Program-made: the position numbers and the translations under genes
The notes under the pieces: generated by a model
Told to the model about the DNA's origin: nothing
The model's database searches: none
The model's input: the letters and a program-made list of their open reading frames with translations, nothing else
DNA from: Patescibacteria group bacterium
GTDB lineage: Bacteria; Patescibacteriota; Dojkabacteria; J137
Direction of reading: 5' to 3'
NCBI GenBank assembly: GCA_963169855.1
Contig: CAUJCN010000002.1
Coordinates: 452,885 to 516,884 of the forward strand
Length of the DNA: 64,000 nucleotides
Shown here: piece by piece, positions 50,428 through 55,958 of the stretch
Numbering within the stretch: position 1 is the stretch's first letter
Layout of the letters: every line of letters begins with the position of its first letter

Positions 50428-51573
50428 TTAATTCTTCTTGTACAATTTGAACTTCCTGGAATCCCCAACAATAATTATTTCGGAAAGAAAGTACGGTAAT
50501 TTATCAAAGAAGTGTGGATCCAAAGCAGAAATTACTGCACTCCATTCAATCACTACTATATTATTTGGAACGAAATACTCTTTAAGTCTCAATCTCTCCA
50601 AATCTTCTTTTTCTTTAATTCGCCACGCATCTATATGAATCAACTTTCCTCCGTTGTTTAGTGGATATTCATTTATGTAATTATATGTAGGTGATTTAAC
50701 AACTCGTTCAATACCAAACTGCTGAGCAATTCCTTTTGTGACATGTGTTTTTCCGGCACCCATCTGACCGTCTAAAAGAACAACCTTTGGATTATTTTGT
50801 TGAGCTAAGAGCTCTCCAACTGCCTTTCCAATCTCAATTGTTTCATCTACATTCTGAGACCCAAGATCTTGAATATGCGTTAATTCTGTTGGATTGATTC
50901 TTCCAGAACGATGAACGACCAAATCTTCCGACGAAAAGTCTAAAACAGTTGATGGAGGATTATGAGGTAATTCGTAACCTGGGTCTATTATTGCGTCTAT
51001 TAAGTTAAGTTTAGACTCAGGTAATTTCGCTAAGATGCTTTCTACTGAATAGGGCATAAAACTTCCATCCGAAGCTATAGTTGTCGTAAGTGGATTACCT
51101 AAGAATTGGATAAGTTCTAGAACTTCGGAAAAATTTGGGATTCTGATAGCCAAAGTTCCATTTTCAGCAGGCAATCTTGCATCAGTTTTGCCAAGTGATT
51201 TACCTACAATCGTTACTGCGCCAGGTGTAAAGTTCTTAATTGCAGTTGAAATTTGAGAAGTTACATCTATAAATTCACCTGCCATTTCTAATCCAGAAAC
51301 TGCTACTGGAATAGATCTTCCTAAGATTCTATCTTTAAAATTCAAAAGTTTTGTTACAGCTTCTTGATTATCTGAATAGCAACCCAGGGCAAAACAAGTA
51401 TCGGTAGGGTAGGCGATTAACCCACCATTATCCAAAACCTGCTTAATTTGAATTTTCCAATCGCTTGTTCCATTAAGTTTAATCACTTCCATTCTTGAAT
51501 ATATATGTTTTTCTGTATAAAATATGATCAGTATTATATTTTCATGTTGAGAAATTACAAAATACTTGCACAA
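50428..51573 (-). CDS. Fusion of t6A-biosynthesis proteins. The N-terminal YrdC/Sua5 (TsaC) domain is joined to the C-terminal P-loop ATPase TsaE (YjeE).
   Basis: YrdC region WKIQIKQVLDNGGLIAYPTDTCFALGCY. TsaE region VVLLDGQMGAGKTHVTKGIAQQFGI...SPTYNYINEY...IHIDAWR (compare LxGDLGAGKTT...SPTFTL). The probable true start is MEVIKL at 51492. Confidence 0.6.
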   Translation of the reverse strand: MCKYFVISQHENIILIIFYTEKHIYSRMEVIKLNGTSDWKIQIKQVLDNGGLIAYPTDTCFALGCYSDNQEAVTKLLNFKDRILGRSIPVAVSGLEMAGEFIDVTSQISTAIKNFTPGAVTIVGKSLGKTDARLPAENGTLAIRIPNFSEVLELIQFLGNPLTTTIASDGSFMPYSVESILAKLPESKLNLIDAIIDPGYELPHNPPSTVLDFSSEDLVVHRSGRINPTELTHIQDLGSQNVDETIEIGKAVGELLAQQNNPKVVLLDGQMGAGKTHVTKGIAQQFGIERVVKSPTYNYINEYPLNNGGKLIHIDAWRIKEKEDLERLRLKEYFVPNNIVVIEWSAVISALDPHFFDKLPYFLSEIIIVGDSRKFKLYKKN

Positions 51574-52803
51574 ATTTTACTATTTTTAGCTCTTTTTAGC
51601 ACGGCCGTTGGACCAATTCCTGTATTGGCCGAAGGAGAACAAGAAAGATACGACGAACTTCAGGAGCAAATCGCTGAATTACAAAGACAGCGAGGAGATA
51701 TTCAAAACTTACTAAATTCTAATCAATACACAATTTCTGGTTACAATTCTCAAATTGCTCAATTATTTGGAGAAGCTCAAGTGTATCAAAATCAAATAGA
51801 TGAGTTAAATCTTCAAATTGAACAACTTCAAATTAGAATTCAGAAGCTTGAAAAAGAAATTGCTGAACTTAAAATAGATATAGAAAAGCGAGAAACAGAA
51901 ATTACAGGATTAGAAAAAGAGAGTAATAAGAGAATCAAAACAAGTTACATGAATTACCGAACTTACGGAATTAATTTCGAAGTTGGAAACAATATTTTAT
52001 TCAATGATAGTGTAAATTCCTATTTCAAGAACTCACAATACAAAGAACTTATCCAGAATGATACAAACGATCTTTTAGTAAATCTATTCAATTTGAAGGT
52101 TGAACTTGAAGCTAAGAAAGAAGATTTAGCTACTAAACTTTTAGAAACTCAAAATGATAAAGAAGAAGTTGATATTAAAGTAGCTGATGCTAACGAAAAG
52201 AAAGGAGAACTTGATGTTAAGCTAAACAAGTATTACTACGAGGTTAATCAACTAAATAGTCAGAACGCAAATTATCAAAACTCAATCAATGCTTTAAGTG
52301 ATCAAGAAATGAAAATTCATGCAGAAGCTGTTCTTGTTATGCAAGAAATCATGAGAACTTCTGTTACAACTGGACAATACGTTCTTGCCGGAACTATTAT
52401 CGGAATTCAAGGTTGTACAGGATACTGTTTTGGAGAACACTTACACTTTTCGGTTTATGTTAACGGAAACTCTGTAAATCCATGTTCAATGTTGGAGGGT
52501 GGAGTAGGGTGTGGAAGTGGAGGACCTTTGAAAGCACCTTTAAGAGGAAATGTTTCTTTCAATAGTGGCTACGGAACAAGATGTTTTAACGGAGAATGTG
52601 TTCTACACGACGGAATTGACATTACAGGTTTCCCACTTGGAGGTACATTTGTTTATGCCGCTAATGATGGATACATCCAGAGAGGTCAAGACTGTTGGCA
52701 CTATAATATGGGTTATCAAACAAATGGTTGCGCCAACTATGTAAAAGTATCTAACCCAGACACTGGCGTTACTACTGGATATTGGCACTTGAATTCCTTC
52801 TAA
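51505..52803 (+). CDS. Secreted coiled-coil M23 (LytM-domain) peptidase, EnvC-like
   Basis: A signal peptide is followed by about 250 aa of heptad-rich coiled coil. The C-terminal M23 motifs GIQGCTGYCFGEHLHFSVYVNGNSVNP and HDGIDI are present. The probable true start is M14 (51544). Confidence 0.75.
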   Translation: MFFCIKYDQYYIFMLRNYKILAQILLFLALFSTAVGPIPVLAEGEQERYDELQEQIAELQRQRGDIQNLLNSNQYTISGYNSQIAQLFGEAQVYQNQIDELNLQIEQLQIRIQKLEKEIAELKIDIEKRETEITGLEKESNKRIKTSYMNYRTYGINFEVGNNILFNDSVNSYFKNSQYKELIQNDTNDLLVNLFNLKVELEAKKEDLATKLLETQNDKEEVDIKVADANEKKGELDVKLNKYYYEVNQLNSQNANYQNSINALSDQEMKIHAEAVLVMQEIMRTSVTTGQYVLAGTIIGIQGCTGYCFGEHLHFSVYVNGNSVNPCSMLEGGVGCGSGGPLKAPLRGNVSFNSGYGTRCFNGECVLHDGIDITGFPLGGTFVYAANDGYIQRGQDCWHYNMGYQTNGCANYVKVSNPDTGVTTGYWHLNSF

Positions 52804-52910
52804 AATCACGCAAAGAATTTATCTATTGATGTTTATTCAACTTTGTATAATAATGTAGAAAGGTAAAAGATTTTTTCACTTGTAAATAATAAAAATCTTT
52901 AATATCAATA

Positions 52911-53912
52911 ATGTTTAAAAGAGTAGTCTGCACAACAATTTTAGCTGTTTTCACTGGAGGCTTCATGATGCCTTTTAATCTTGTTTCCGCAGCAGATGTT
53001 TCCGTTACAGTAACCCCAACAAGCATGACATTAGGTGCCACTGGTGTTGGAATGACATTAACTTTTACTCCACCAGTTCCTTTAACTACGAATACAACGA
53101 TCGATGTTGTGTATGATGACGAAGCTTTCGAAGCAGTTTTAACAGATAGTGATATTACAGTAACTGGTACTAATATTATTGGAAGCGCCGAAAGTAACTT
53201 TATGGATGGACGATTCAGATCAACATTAACTGTAGCAGGAGCAACTGCAGGTGTTGTAACAATCACTATTGATAATAATCCGGGGTTCACTAACCCTTCT
53301 GTAGCTGGAAATTTTGCAGTTGGAGTAATCATTGATAATGGTGGATTGGGAATAACTCAAGATTTTGGTGCATCGCTGCTATATTACGGGAATGCTAACC
53401 AAGTTGGCGTTACTGGATCGGTAGTTAGCGCAGTAATTCCAACATGCACTCTCAGAGTAAATATTAAGCCCGAGAAGAGAATCCCTAGAATTGGAAATTG
53501 GGATACTATCCTGACTGTCGAAGTTGCGACTACCTCAAATATCACATTAAGAACTTTCAGCTTCCCTACAAATACTCAAGGGGAGGGTAATTATGATTTG
53601 TGCGGGAATGGAATATACTTCCCCCCAGGAAATTACAATTTCAAAATTAGAGGTTACTCACATTTAAGAAAGGTATTTGAAAACATTCTTGCATTCAACA
53701 CAACTTCAGAATTCTCCATTACTTTCTTGGAAGAAATGCTTGCAGGAGAGACCAGTATTGTCTATGATAATTACATAAACATGATGGACTTTGTAACTCA
53801 GATTCAGGAACTTTATACTGCTGATTACAAAAATGATCTTAATCAAGATGGTTTAGTAAATTCTTTGGATTTTGCTAATACAATAACTAACTTCTACCTC
53901 AATGGAGAATAG
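52911..53912 (+). CDS. Secreted Thr/Val-rich beta protein with a C-terminal dockerin-like Ca-binding repeat
   Basis: Signal peptide ILAVFTGGFMMPFNLVSA. The C-terminus DYKNDLNQDGLVNSLDFANTITNFYL matches the dockerin loop pattern D.N.DG.VN..D...L..Y. Confidence 0.5.
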   Translation: MFKRVVCTTILAVFTGGFMMPFNLVSAADVSVTVTPTSMTLGATGVGMTLTFTPPVPLTTNTTIDVVYDDEAFEAVLTDSDITVTGTNIIGSAESNFMDGRFRSTLTVAGATAGVVTITIDNNPGFTNPSVAGNFAVGVIIDNGGLGITQDFGASLLYYGNANQVGVTGSVVSAVIPTCTLRVNIKPEKRIPRIGNWDTILTVEVATTSNITLRTFSFPTNTQGEGNYDLCGNGIYFPPGNYNFKIRGYSHLRKVFENILAFNTTSEFSITFLEEMLAGETSIVYDNYINMMDFVTQIQELYTADYKNDLNQDGLVNSLDFANTITNFYLNGE

Positions 53913-53940
53913 AAGTAACTATAACTGTTAATTTGGAACA

Positions 53941-55896
53941 ATGCTAAACAAATTTTTGAGATTTTCTGTAATATCAATATTCTTTTTTGTAGGGATTGTT
54001 TCTGCACAAACAGTAAAAGCTGCATCTTTTGAATTTGTACCTCCTACAAACACATACCCTCTTGGATGTCGACAGATTGTGAACATCTTTGCTGATGCAA
54101 CAGGACAAAGTTCGAATGGAGCAGACTTAGAAGTTATGTTTGATCCTAGTCAAGTTGAAATCTTGGACTTGGATCCTAATATCCCTGGAATACAGATTAG
54201 AAGCGGAACAGCTTACGAAACGTATGTTTTTAACGAAGTAGACCCTAACATCGGAAGAATTAGAATGGCGGCGGGATCTTTTGAGAATCCTTTAACGTCA
54301 CGAGAATTGTTTGCGACAGTAGACTTTGCAGGAAGACCTGGGGCTACAGTAGGAAATTTTACAATTAGGGTTAATGGATTCGGTCCAGAGGTTTCCTTAG
54401 ATTCAAATATTGCTGATTCAAATACAAATCTAGACTTACTTACATCAACTGTTGATGGTAGTTACACTTTCGAGACTAGTGAGTGCGAAGATGATCTGAT
54501 TCCTCCAACAAACACATTCATAAATCCAATTGCATATACTGTTAACAACAACTATTTAGATGGAGTTGAAGTTACCGTTAGCGACTTTGGAGTTGGAGTA
54601 GATTTAAGTACAGTTGTGATTATTATTAACGGAGTAGAGTATAGATTCGATTCTCCTGGAGTAACTTATACTGGAGATCCTGCGAGCTATACATTCTTTA
54701 TTACTTTAAGTGAACCTTACCCTATTGATGAGCCTGTAACTGGAGTTATTAGATCCACAGACTTGGCTGGAAATACTTCAACTACACAAATCGTGTTTAA
54801 TATTCCCCCAGGAGCACCTGTTTGTCCTGTTTCCCAACCAATCGTAAACATTAACAATTCCACTAACCTTTGTGAATTTGGGGAGCAGAACTTTGTAAAC
54901 AATTTTTTTGGAGAAGGATCTTTTATCGATCAAATTTTTACTAACGCTGGAACAACAGGAATTGCCGCTGCACTACTTGGAATACTCTCGTTATTGTGGT
55001 TATTACCTTTAATTAACGCTCCTTTACTGTTACTGAATCTATTGAGTGCTTTCTTAGGGAGAAGAACTCGAAGACCATGGGGACTTGTGCTTGACGGAAT
55101 GTCTAGAAAACCAATTTCTTTGGCAACTTGTAGACTATACAAATCTGGAACATTATTCATGGTTTCCCAAACCGTGAGCGACATGGAAGGTAGATATGGA
55201 TTCTCTGTCTCGGATGGAGATTATAGGCTTGAAATTACTAAGGATGGATATCAGAAACATTCTCAAGAGATCCAAATTACGAAAGAAGAGAAAGGGTATA
55301 TCACAGACGTTTTAATGGTTCCTGCTACATTGACAGAAAATAGCAAGAATTCTGAAGGAGGCATCGGATTATTCTTTAAGAGACTTGGTGTTTTCTACAA
55401 GAGAGTTTCACCATTCCTAATGTTTGCTGGATTCATTCTTTCGATTGTAACAATGTTCTTGTTTAGAAATGCATTTAATACGATTATTTTCCTATTATAC
55501 GTATTCAATTACATACTACTTTTGATTGCTAGACTAAGAAGACCCTACAAATCTTCTGCAGTTATTGATTCAAAGACCAAGTTAAGAATTCCATACGCAA
55601 TTATTAAGATCTTTGAAATTTCTACAATGAAGTTAGTAGATACAATGGTTTCTAATGAAAACGGAGAATTCGAATACTTTGGAGAGCCTGGACAATACGG
55701 TATCTTGATAGCAGTTAGAGGATACAACTTCCCATCTGAAGCTCAGACAGATCTTTCTAAAATGGATGGAATTTACAGTGGAATCCTGAAAGTAAATTTG
55801 AACAGAGGAAATAACAAGCTACAGATTTTTGTTGATCCAGTTAGTGATTCTTCTAGTTACCTAGAACAAGGTAATCTAAAGACCCCATTCGGTTGA
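53941..55896 (+). CDS. Membrane-anchored protein (651 aa) with an N-terminal cohesin-like domain, 3-4 central TM helices and two carboxypeptidase-regulatory-like (transthyretin-fold) domains
   Basis: The signal peptide is followed by FEFVPPTNTYPLGCRQIVNIFADATGQSSNGADLEVMFDPSQVEIL...ELFATVDFAGRPGATVGNFTIRVNGF, which resembles the cohesin strand pattern. The TM block is IAAALLGILSLLWLLPLINAPLLLLNLL. The repeated domains resemble CarboxypepD_reg (...RLYKSGTLFMVSQTVSDMEGRYGFSVSDGDYRLEITKDGYQ...). Confidence 0.4.
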   Translation: MLNKFLRFSVISIFFFVGIVSAQTVKAASFEFVPPTNTYPLGCRQIVNIFADATGQSSNGADLEVMFDPSQVEILDLDPNIPGIQIRSGTAYETYVFNEVDPNIGRIRMAAGSFENPLTSRELFATVDFAGRPGATVGNFTIRVNGFGPEVSLDSNIADSNTNLDLLTSTVDGSYTFETSECEDDLIPPTNTFINPIAYTVNNNYLDGVEVTVSDFGVGVDLSTVVIIINGVEYRFDSPGVTYTGDPASYTFFITLSEPYPIDEPVTGVIRSTDLAGNTSTTQIVFNIPPGAPVCPVSQPIVNINNSTNLCEFGEQNFVNNFFGEGSFIDQIFTNAGTTGIAAALLGILSLLWLLPLINAPLLLLNLLSAFLGRRTRRPWGLVLDGMSRKPISLATCRLYKSGTLFMVSQTVSDMEGRYGFSVSDGDYRLEITKDGYQKHSQEIQITKEEKGYITDVLMVPATLTENSKNSEGGIGLFFKRLGVFYKRVSPFLMFAGFILSIVTMFLFRNAFNTIIFLLYVFNYILLLIARLRRPYKSSAVIDSKTKLRIPYAIIKIFEISTMKLVDTMVSNENGEFEYFGEPGQYGILIAVRGYNFPSEAQTDLSKMDGIYSGILKVNLNRGNNKLQIFVDPVSDSSSYLEQGNLKTPFG

Positions 55897-55930
55897 AATT
55901 GATTGATAACTAACCACACATTTTAAAGTC

Positions 55931-55958
55931 ACTCCCGCCTAATGCGGGAGTCTCTTGA
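55931..55958 (+). terminator. GC-rich hairpin (ACTCCCGC-CTAAT-GCGGGAGT) downstream of the cohesin-like gene, a possible terminator lacking a clear U-tract
   Basis: A perfect 8-bp stem is seen. It is followed by CTCTTGAG rather than a T-run. Confidence 0.3.

Follow-up and report, generated by a model that had tools for sequence, protein, structure and literature searches.

Two adjacent genes of a Patescibacteria group bacterium of the Dojkabacteria lineage, lying in a 64-kb stretch of contig CAUJCN010000002.1 that we call the window, encode a secreted protein of 333 amino acids (aa) and a membrane-anchored protein of 651 aa. We propose that the two products form a dedicated, calcium-dependent 1:1 complex at the cell surface, in which an X module-dockerin (XDoc) protein would sit on a membrane protein bearing a single cohesin domain; we put the probability of this reading at about 0.65. 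Cohesin-dockerin pairs are the textbook glue of cellulosomes, and non-cellulosomal cohesins and dockerins have long been known from genomes, their partners and roles being mostly unknown. What is novel here is the conserved synteny of the XDoc-cohesin pair and the architecture of its membrane anchor, the biochemistry of cohesin-dockerin binding being familiar. An earlier note, made from the sequence of the window alone, had suggested that a dockerin protein, a cohesin-like scaffold and a neighbouring M23 peptidase make up a minimal surface-assembly system.

Results

A gene pair conserved across Candidatus Dojkabacteria

The secreted protein is encoded at positions 52911-53912 and the membrane-anchored protein at 53941-55896, both on the forward strand. 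The stop codon of the first gene and the start codon of the second are 28 nucleotides (nt) apart, and the two genes lie in different reading frames. Synteny was examined in 25 loci drawn from one genome per GTDB species, to which 4 loci from individual orthologue look-ups (L001-L004) were added. Hidden Markov models (HMMs) for the cohesin, the X module and the dockerin were searched in all six-frame open reading frames (ORFs) of these loci. In 22 of the 24 testable species-representative loci (in L009, left out of this count, the contig ends there), the gene next upstream of the cohesin gene, in the same orientation, is that of the X-dockerin protein; this order is also found in the four looked-up loci and in the window. 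The ORF bounds of the paired genes are -70 to +151 nt apart. The pairing is kept where the orthologues are only 30-40% identical to those of the window, the partner there being a short form of the secreted protein. Each locus holds one cohesin and one dockerin, which makes the pairing 1:1. When the neighbouring genes of 28 non-redundant loci were clustered all against all, only two families proved to be widely shared, in 27 and 25 loci; no conserved third partner emerged from this clustering, the next best family occurring in 6 loci. The earlier view of a self-contained pair, for which a check of related genomes had been advised, is supported by its retention in those genomes.

The orthologues come from metagenome-assembled genomes (MAGs) labelled Candidatus Dojkabacteria (WS6, Candidate Phyla Radiation (CPR)), and related complete genomes measure 0.89-1.27 Mb. 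The G+C content is about 35% all along the window, whose other genes are the housekeeping genes of a reduced genome, among them a Sua5/TsaC-TsaE fusion, a TrmB-like regulator and a short IF-2. The reduced, non-cellulolytic setting assumed in the earlier note is supported. Several MAGs that hold a cassette of the Dojkabacteria type (L008, L025 and others) bear the labels 'Bdellovibrionales', 'Gammaproteobacteria' or 'Candidatus Saccharibacteria', which probably reflect generic naming or mis-binned contigs.

The cohesin might instead anchor dockerin-bearing carbohydrate-active enzymes (CAZymes) encoded elsewhere, as in a minimal cellulosome-like system where the adjacent XDoc protein is one of several clients. 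Dockerin-like and 'cellulosome anchoring' proteins of CPR bacteria have been read as signs of carbohydrate degradation, in SR1 (PMC3812714) and in a study that predicts this capacity for Dojkabacteria (PMC7038595), and two distant homologues have the XDoc on a larger protein: P0073, which also contains fn3 and a purple-acid-phosphatase N-domain, and P0075. However, the features of a cellulosome, namely a multi-cohesin scaffoldin, many dockerin-bearing CAZymes and a carbohydrate-binding module (CBM), are absent from the window and from the conserved neighbours. The anchor has a single cohesin, no CAZyme family or CBM is found among the conserved neighbours of the pair, and the whole 64-kb window contains one dockerin-like loop and one cohesin. 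The homologue search for the 333-aa protein assigned no other protein to the source contig (817,811 bp), and most clients have no catalytic domain. A dockerin-only profile search for further dockerin-bearing proteins was uninformative, as it returned short fragments only, none of them on the source contig. We consider a cellulosome-like role very unlikely.

The secreted protein ends in a predicted X-dockerin dyad

Searches of NCBIfam, and phmmer searches of the PDB, with the window's own 333-aa and 651-aa proteins found nothing. Because direct HMM and PDB searches with the window proteins failed, the analysis was carried out at the level of the family, on alignments of orthologues. Once orthologues are used, the resemblances to dockerins and cohesins exceed chance.

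The 333-aa protein, for which 58 homologues were collected, is a long form. Its AlphaFold2 (AF2) model, with a predicted local distance difference test score (pLDDT) of 85.8, begins with a signal helix, continues with a beta domain (aa 32-159) and an immunoglobulin (Ig)-like domain (aa 180-271), and has two further helices, at aa 291-299 and at aa 318-326. The signal peptide (aa 1-27, 52911-52991) corresponds to a model helix at aa 2-18 and ends in an AxA-type cleavage site (...NLVSA/AD), so that cleavage would occur after aa 27. It is followed by an N-terminal beta-sandwich cargo domain (aa 28-165, 52992-53405), an Ig-like X module (aa 176-272, 53436-53726) delimited from the homologue alignment and from fold matches to XDoc dyads, and a dockerin (aa 276-333, 53736-53909), with the C-terminal end ...DLNQDGLVNSLDFANTITNFYLNGE.

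Both the sequence and the model show the two loop-helix repeats (F-hands) of a dockerin. The second loop is canonical (DLNQDGLVNSLDF), repeat 2 reading DLNQDGLVNSLD and following the pattern D-x-N/D-x-D-G-x-V/I-N-x-x-D. The first loop (GETSIVYDNYINMMDF) is not typical; in repeat 1, SIVYDNYINMMD, positions 5, 8, 9 and 12 of the pattern are kept, and an invariant G-E/D precedes it, as in the XDoc of CipB. In the short forms of the protein the module has the consensus LLAGETSxxYDNYINSLDxSTQI...DLNQDGxVNSLDxSNTIxNFYxxGD. Pfam Dockerin_1 (PF00404) matches 28 of 30 homologues at E <= 1 (best 1.3e-12), and 8 of the 58 homologues carry a precomputed PF00404 annotation. A PDB search with the family dockerin profile gave 22 sequences at E <= 1, and every one is a dockerin module or a dockerin-bearing enzyme. 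The best, 5k39_B (X module and type-II dockerin of CipB, Clostridium thermocellum; E 2.2e-5), is aligned over both repeats, and this alignment takes in the unusual first one (LWAGD..vqDNaINmvD vs LAGETS..yDNYINmmD).

The predicted structure leads to the same family of modules. The best Foldseek matches of the 333-aa model in the PDB are the Coh9-X-DocII fragment of CipA (3kcp_A, E 1.4e-12) and the XDoc dyads 2b59_B, 5g5d_B, 4wi0_B and 4u3s_B, the dyads being superposed with TM-scores, normalised to the target, of 0.60-0.66 (0.62-0.66 for the first three) at 20-22% identity over 164-168 columns. In the model the Ig-like X module stands directly N-terminal to the dockerin and is packed on it, as in an XDoc dyad. 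The dockerin read from the window at this C-terminus is well founded, and the predicted structure makes it part of an XDoc dyad resembling those of type II and not a bare type-I dockerin. Most homologues are short forms of about 200 aa, made up of a cleavable signal peptide, the Ig-like X module and the dockerin, with no cargo. Weak FlgD_ig matches to the X module are found in 4 family members. Two motifs of this module, PEKRIP...NW (53466-53488, aa 186-193) and SHLRK (53658-53672, aa 250-254), are near-invariant in 30 aligned homologues, a conservation far above what a passive spacer needs; they could be an X-dockerin interface, an X-cohesin interface or a ligand site.

The N-terminal cargo domain is confined to the long-form relatives and absent from the short forms. 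In the model it matches BslA (4bhu_I, E 2e-5, target-normalised TM-score 0.64) and also YweA (5mkd), with scores of 0.64-0.66 for these folds, and Pfam BslA matches 3 of the 30 homologues. Its Ig-type sandwich is thus similar to that of the BslA/YweA bacterial hydrophobins (4bhu, 5mkd). In contrast to these, it gives no evidence of a hydrophobic cap, it is predicted to be tethered through a dockerin and not to self-assemble, and it occurs in the long-form sub-clade only. A further family stands just downstream of the cohesin gene in 4 loci (L002 6718-7743; L012 7410-8417; L015 7398-8423; L018 7452-8475, the last frameshifted). It consists of secreted, Ala/Thr/Gly-rich proteins of about 335 aa that end in ...TYTAxANF, and Pfam gave no match for it. 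Over its first ~150 aa this family shares homology with the N-domain found in long-form X-dockerin proteins, that of the window included, which suggests that the long-form cargo domain was acquired from this downstream neighbour.

The membrane-anchored protein starts with a predicted cohesin

The mature N-terminus of the 651-aa protein is a domain (aa 28-182, 54022-54486) with the motif LDSNIADSxTNLDLL; the protein includes the segments GADLEVMFDPSQVEIL and LFATVDFAGRPGATVGNFTIRVNGF. Scanned singly, 10 of 16 orthologous N-domains match Pfam Cohesin (PF00963) at E <= 10, and three of them exceed its gathering score of 24.1 bits (35.0, 32.8 and 24.2 bits), over profile positions ~10-133 of 139. 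It would follow by transitive homology that the N-domain of the window also belongs to Cohesin. A profile built from aa 26-186 in an alignment of 16 sequences has cohesins of CipA as its best PDB matches (3kcp_A, E 0.0057; 1aoh_A, E 0.16). The AF2 model of the domain (pLDDT 85.2, predicted TM-score 0.83) is all-beta, and the first 42 PDB matches that Foldseek returned for it are cohesins without exception, those of types I, II and III as well as the non-cellulosomal ones of archaea and Clostridium perfringens. The best match is 6kgf_C (E 3e-8, TM-scores 0.69/0.75), and TM-scores among the cohesins reach 0.77. The model and these matches give the nine-stranded, flattened beta-sandwich with jelly-roll topology that characterises a cohesin, and the proposal of a cohesin in this place holds.

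The type of this cohesin is a separate matter. The earlier note had seen a type-I-like module. Type-II cohesins are marked by a crowning helix between strands 6 and 7 as well as by flaps (PMC5141474). DSSP found no helix in the AF2 model, and an assignment of the domain to type II was rejected on this ground. Types I, II, III and the non-cellulosomal cohesins score alike against the model in Foldseek.

Among 1.84 billion representative sequences, the N-domain profile matched 2290 proteins with E <= 1e-3, of which 206 reach E <= 1e-30. Of the 150 best matches that were listed, the majority measure 550-800 aa; the architecture is therefore that of a sizeable family. The 651-aa protein itself has few close homologues, all unnamed or called 'carboxypeptidase regulatory-like'. 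The window protein and most of its orthologues have one cohesin each. Two invariant cysteines, Cys43 (54067-54069) and Cys182 (54484-54486), flank the domain and may form a disulphide staple. Genes for a DsbD-type protein and a thioredoxin lie within 3 kb upstream of the pair in two distant loci (L003 3519-4280; L004 2790-4115).

Architecture and topology of the anchor

Like its partner, the 651-aa protein has a signal peptide. Beyond this single signal peptide at the N-terminus, hydropathy reveals one long hydrophobic stretch (aa 336-373) and one two-helix hairpin (aa 488-533). The order of the parts is signal peptide, cohesin, Ig-like spacer, Cys-containing linker, first transmembrane segment (TM1), CarboxypepD_reg domain 1, hairpin, CarboxypepD_reg-like domain 2 and tail. 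The spacer (aa 186-290, 54496-54810) is of the Big_5 type: Pfam Big_5 matches 8 of 16 family members (best 4.4e-8), and the spacer is duplicated in longer orthologues. TM1 (54946-55059), recognised from hydropathy and charge counts, is followed by GRRTRRP and then by the first transthyretin-like domain (aa 381-451, 55081-55293), which passes the cut-off of CarboxypepD_reg (PF13620) with 43.8 bits against 32.3 and is matched in 12 of 16 orthologues. The hairpin (55402-55539) has a short conserved N.FN turn and K/R-rich flanks on both sides. The second transthyretin-like domain (aa ~538-632, 55552-55836), for which Pfam gave no match of its own, repeats the first one within the protein (BLAST E 7e-6; 60 aa aligned at 25% identity). 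The protein ends in a conserved tail, ...GNLKTPFG (55858-55893), with the family consensus GNLxxPF(G/S/N). The earlier description of a membrane-anchored protein with two CarboxypepD_reg-like domains was accurate, being supported by Pfam, the internal repeat and hydropathy. Its term 'scaffold' was an overstatement, there being one cohesin and one partner, which is cargo-less in most relatives.

In 13 orthologues an acidic flank precedes TM1, 2-4 K/R residues follow it, and both flanks of the hairpin are K/R-rich. Because of this pattern and the positive-inside rule, both CarboxypepD_reg-like domains are predicted to be cytoplasmic. The tail would then be cytoplasmic as well, and it may be a recognition peptide.

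Conservation of the presumed interaction modules

If the two proteins bind each other, the modules that make contact are expected to be the cohesin and the dockerin, and these are the most conserved part of each protein. Mean pairwise identity is 48.8% for the cohesin, where the rest of the 651-aa protein has 20-44%, and 61.9% for the dockerin, where the X module has 35% and the N-domain 32%.

These figures bear on the possibility that the two surface proteins are co-expressed without binding to one another, with other partners elsewhere in the genome or on a host surface, or with the dockerin-like module acting as a calcium-stabilised structural cap. In favour of this, an XDoc-like dockerin stands beside a cohesin that shows no type-II features, no dockerin gene adjoins the cohesin gene in two loci (L013 and L029), and non-cellulosomal cohesins and dockerins of unknown partner are widespread, as Peer et al. 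are said to have reported in 2009. However, such independence is hard to reconcile with a tight, 1:1, same-strand adjacency that is near-universal across orthologues only 30-40% identical, with the lack of any other conserved neighbour, and with the conservation just described. Moreover, the short-form partners consist only of the X module and the dockerin, so that the partner of the dockerin must be the point of the protein. We regard the non-binding alternative as unlikely.

Transcription and neighbouring genes

The X-dockerin and cohesin genes probably form one transcript, as judged from the 28-nt gap, a promoter-like site upstream and a stable hairpin downstream. The site, TTGATG ... TGTATAAT/AATAAT (52826-52854, + strand), stands ~60 nt upstream of the X-dockerin gene and may be the pair's own promoter; as evidence it is weak, because the 17 promoter-like sites found in the region do not exceed the 18.2 expected from shuffles. 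The hairpin (55931-55951, + strand) lies 35 nt past the stop codon of the cohesin gene. It is GC-rich and terminator-like, with a weak U tract, and folds at -17.3 kcal/mol (z-score -4.2 against shuffles). A consensus scan for promoters and terminators gave counts that were not above the shuffled expectation, and it did not call this hairpin.

Upstream of the pair, positions 51505-52803 (+ strand) encode a protein of 432 aa with an N-terminal hydrophobic segment, a long coiled coil and an M23 domain (~52315-52800), ending in ...GYWHLNSF. Peptidase_M23 matches it with 49.3 bits (cut-off 28.7; 5.7e-13). Compared with 6jmx_A the two halves of the domain are reversed, the HxH half (aa ~282-329) preceding the HxxxD half (aa ~341-398). 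When the sequence was de-permuted, the split Pfam match became a single full-length one (positions 3-96 of 96, 58.8 bits). We know of no described permuted M23 domain. All zinc ligands are present, in the motifs HDGID and HLH in reversed order; the protein is therefore probably an active enzyme and not an activator of the EnvC type. The EnvC-like nature seen earlier does not hold in a functional sense, and the NCBIfam EnvC equivalog gives 19.5 bits where membership calls for 270.

The earlier note had counted this peptidase as part of the system. The peptidase, the dockerin protein and the cohesin protein would then act as one unit, by analogy with EnvC and its partners, in division or in the remodelling of the cell wall. 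The three genes do share one strand in the window, in L001 and in L005, and the N-terminal hydrophobic segment and coiled coil recall EnvC. However, these are the only 3 of 28 loci in which the M23 gene adjoins the pair, and all three are close relatives; on this synteny the peptidase was rejected as a member of the system. The 108-nt gap between it and the pair holds the promoter-like site, the EnvC score is far below the cut-off, and the protein has neither dockerin nor cohesin. Because the M23 gene is not conserved beside the pair, the idea of cell-wall remodelling finds no support, and we regard a three-gene unit as very improbable.

Next to the M23 gene, positions 50428-51573 (- strand) hold a single gene that fuses the Sua5/YrdC (TsaC) and TsaE domains of threonylcarbamoyladenosine (t6A) biosynthesis (Pfam 2.6e-30 and 4.2e-30). 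The fusion is also kept in L001. The listed TTG start of this ORF overlaps the 5' end of the M23 gene and is probably too far upstream. In about 6 loci a DUF2207-like membrane protein of ~680 aa with a Gly-rich C-terminus is encoded directly upstream of the pair (for instance L012 2178-4229); in L013 (2735-4771) it stands upstream of the cohesin gene.

Discussion

The genes at 52911-53912 and 53941-55896 appear to form a two-gene cassette conserved across Candidatus Dojkabacteria, and we propose the following scenario for their products. After cleavage of its signal peptide, the 651-aa protein would expose its single cohesin and the Ig-like spacer outside the cell, TM1 and the later two-helix hairpin would hold it in the membrane, and the two CarboxypepD_reg domains and the conserved C-terminal tail would lie on the cytoplasmic side. 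The secreted 333-aa protein would dock its XDoc dyad onto the cohesin in a 1:1 and calcium-dependent manner, much as type-II and type-III XDocs attach to the anchoring scaffoldins of cellulosome-producing Firmicutes. For a contact on the 8-3-6-5 sheet of the cohesin, the face on which a cohesin binds a dockerin, the support is the conserved adjacency of the genes. In most relatives the docked protein would be only the X module and the dockerin; in the lineage of the window, a BslA-like beta-sandwich would be displayed in addition. We infer from these features that the complex is most plausibly a non-enzymatic surface structure for surface display or adhesion. This role is suggested because the partner in the sub-clade of the window carries a BslA-like domain related to the ~335-aa secreted family; a specific role in adhesion is much less certain. 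Most likely the complex is not a polysaccharide-degrading machine and has no functional tie to the M23 peptidase.

Several points weigh against this proposal. The window's own sequences fall short of the domain models: the 333-aa protein scores 14.5 bits against Dockerin_1 (E 0.041), below the gathering score of 22.9 bits, and Pfam Cohesin does not match the window's N-domain even at E <= 10. Of the HMM comparisons advised in the earlier note, those with Peptidase_M23 and CarboxypepD_reg thus came out positive and those with Cohesin and Dockerin_1 negative. Taken literally, the want of a significant hit to the latter two, which that note had named as grounds for giving up the idea, is what the window sequences show; the orthologues, the profiles and the predicted folds rescue the call. 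The first calcium loop of the dockerin is without the canonical D/N at positions 1 and 3, and the cohesin model shows neither the helix nor the flaps that type-II cohesins, with which XDocs usually pair, typically have. Of the two loci that have a cohesin gene and no adjacent dockerin gene, L013 has the DUF2207-like gene in place of the X-dockerin gene and L029 has a divergent cohesin in a different architecture. Cytoplasmic CarboxypepD_reg domains would be unusual, and their placement here rests solely on the positive-inside rule. A cargo-less XDoc has no obvious purpose. Finally, the cohesin and dockerin counts cover the 64-kb window, and other dockerin-bearing clients elsewhere in the genome are possible.

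Among the closest known counterparts of the proposed complex is the type-II cohesin-XDoc interaction of C. thermocellum (XDoc of ScaA/CipA or CipB with the cohesins of ScaF/SdbA or ScaC), for which the structures 2b59, 5k39 and 5g5d served in the comparison and whose anchoring role has been described (Bras et al. 2016, PMC5141474). In both cases a dockerin of two repeats is joined directly to an Ig-like X module, and its cohesin partner belongs to a protein that is fixed to the cell envelope. The differences are considerable. The Dojkabacteria anchor is predicted to use transmembrane helices and not S-layer homology modules; it has one cohesin and one client, and this client is cargo-less or BslA-like and not a multi-cohesin scaffoldin. 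The modelled cohesin lacks the crowning helix between strands 6 and 7, its protein has predicted cytoplasmic transthyretin-like domains, and the host is a non-cellulolytic CPR bacterium. A single-cohesin, cell-attached anchor that binds an XDoc is found in the type-III system of Ruminococcus flavefaciens (ScaE with the XDoc of CttA or ScaB; 4iu2/4iu3, 2zf9), where the XDoc protein CttA serves adhesion and not catalysis; cohesins of this system occupy ranks 26-30 and 35 among the fold matches of the N-domain. However, ScaE is sortase-anchored to peptidoglycan, CttA carries CBMs, the X module is inserted differently, and the whole stands within a large cellulosome with hundreds of dockerins. Use outside cellulose degradation is shared with the non-cellulosomal modules of Archaeoglobus fulgidus (2xdh) and C. 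perfringens (2jh2, 2w1n, 2vo8 and 2ozn, cohesin-dockerin pairs of toxins and glycosidases), and the cohesin model reaches its highest target-normalised TM-scores (0.77) with 2xdh and 2jh2_C. Unlike the Dojkabacteria pair, these modules are on enzymes or soluble proteins.

The literature that we searched holds no conserved two-gene operon with a polytopic membrane anchor for non-cellulosomal cohesins or dockerins, and we know of none. Nor did the searches turn up any description of an XDoc-cohesin cassette or of a cohesin-TM-CarboxypepD_reg architecture. The pair was not found in the literature on Dojkabacteria, WS6, CPR and Patescibacteria, where only generic CAZyme counts appeared, and in the source databases its proteins are unnamed, being labelled 'hypothetical' or 'carboxypeptidase regulatory-like'.

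One could also imagine that the pair is a lineage-specific transmembrane connector, in which the extracellular cohesin-XDoc unit would be coupled, through three membrane helices, to the cytoplasmic transthyretin-like domains and the GNLxxPF tail. The coupling might be mechanical or allosteric. In such an ultra-small and probably host-dependent bacterium, the unit would be the outward half of a device for attachment or signalling, and an XDoc without cargo would work as a ligand or cap and not as a carrier of enzymes. We offer these ideas as speculation and regard all of them as doubtful.

The proposed 1:1 surface complex has implications beyond the window. The partner of the cohesin is identified here by genetics alone, in a cassette that is strictly 1:1, lineage-wide and enzyme-free. 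For research on cohesins and dockerins, the cassette provides a minimal natural XDoc system, which may be close to the ancestral state. It is also a warning that cohesin and dockerin matches in CPR genomes are not to be read as cellulose degradation (compare PMC3812714 and PMC7038595). For the biology of CPR bacteria, in which surface structures are the presumed basis of host attachment, the pair offers a concrete and testable surface complex.

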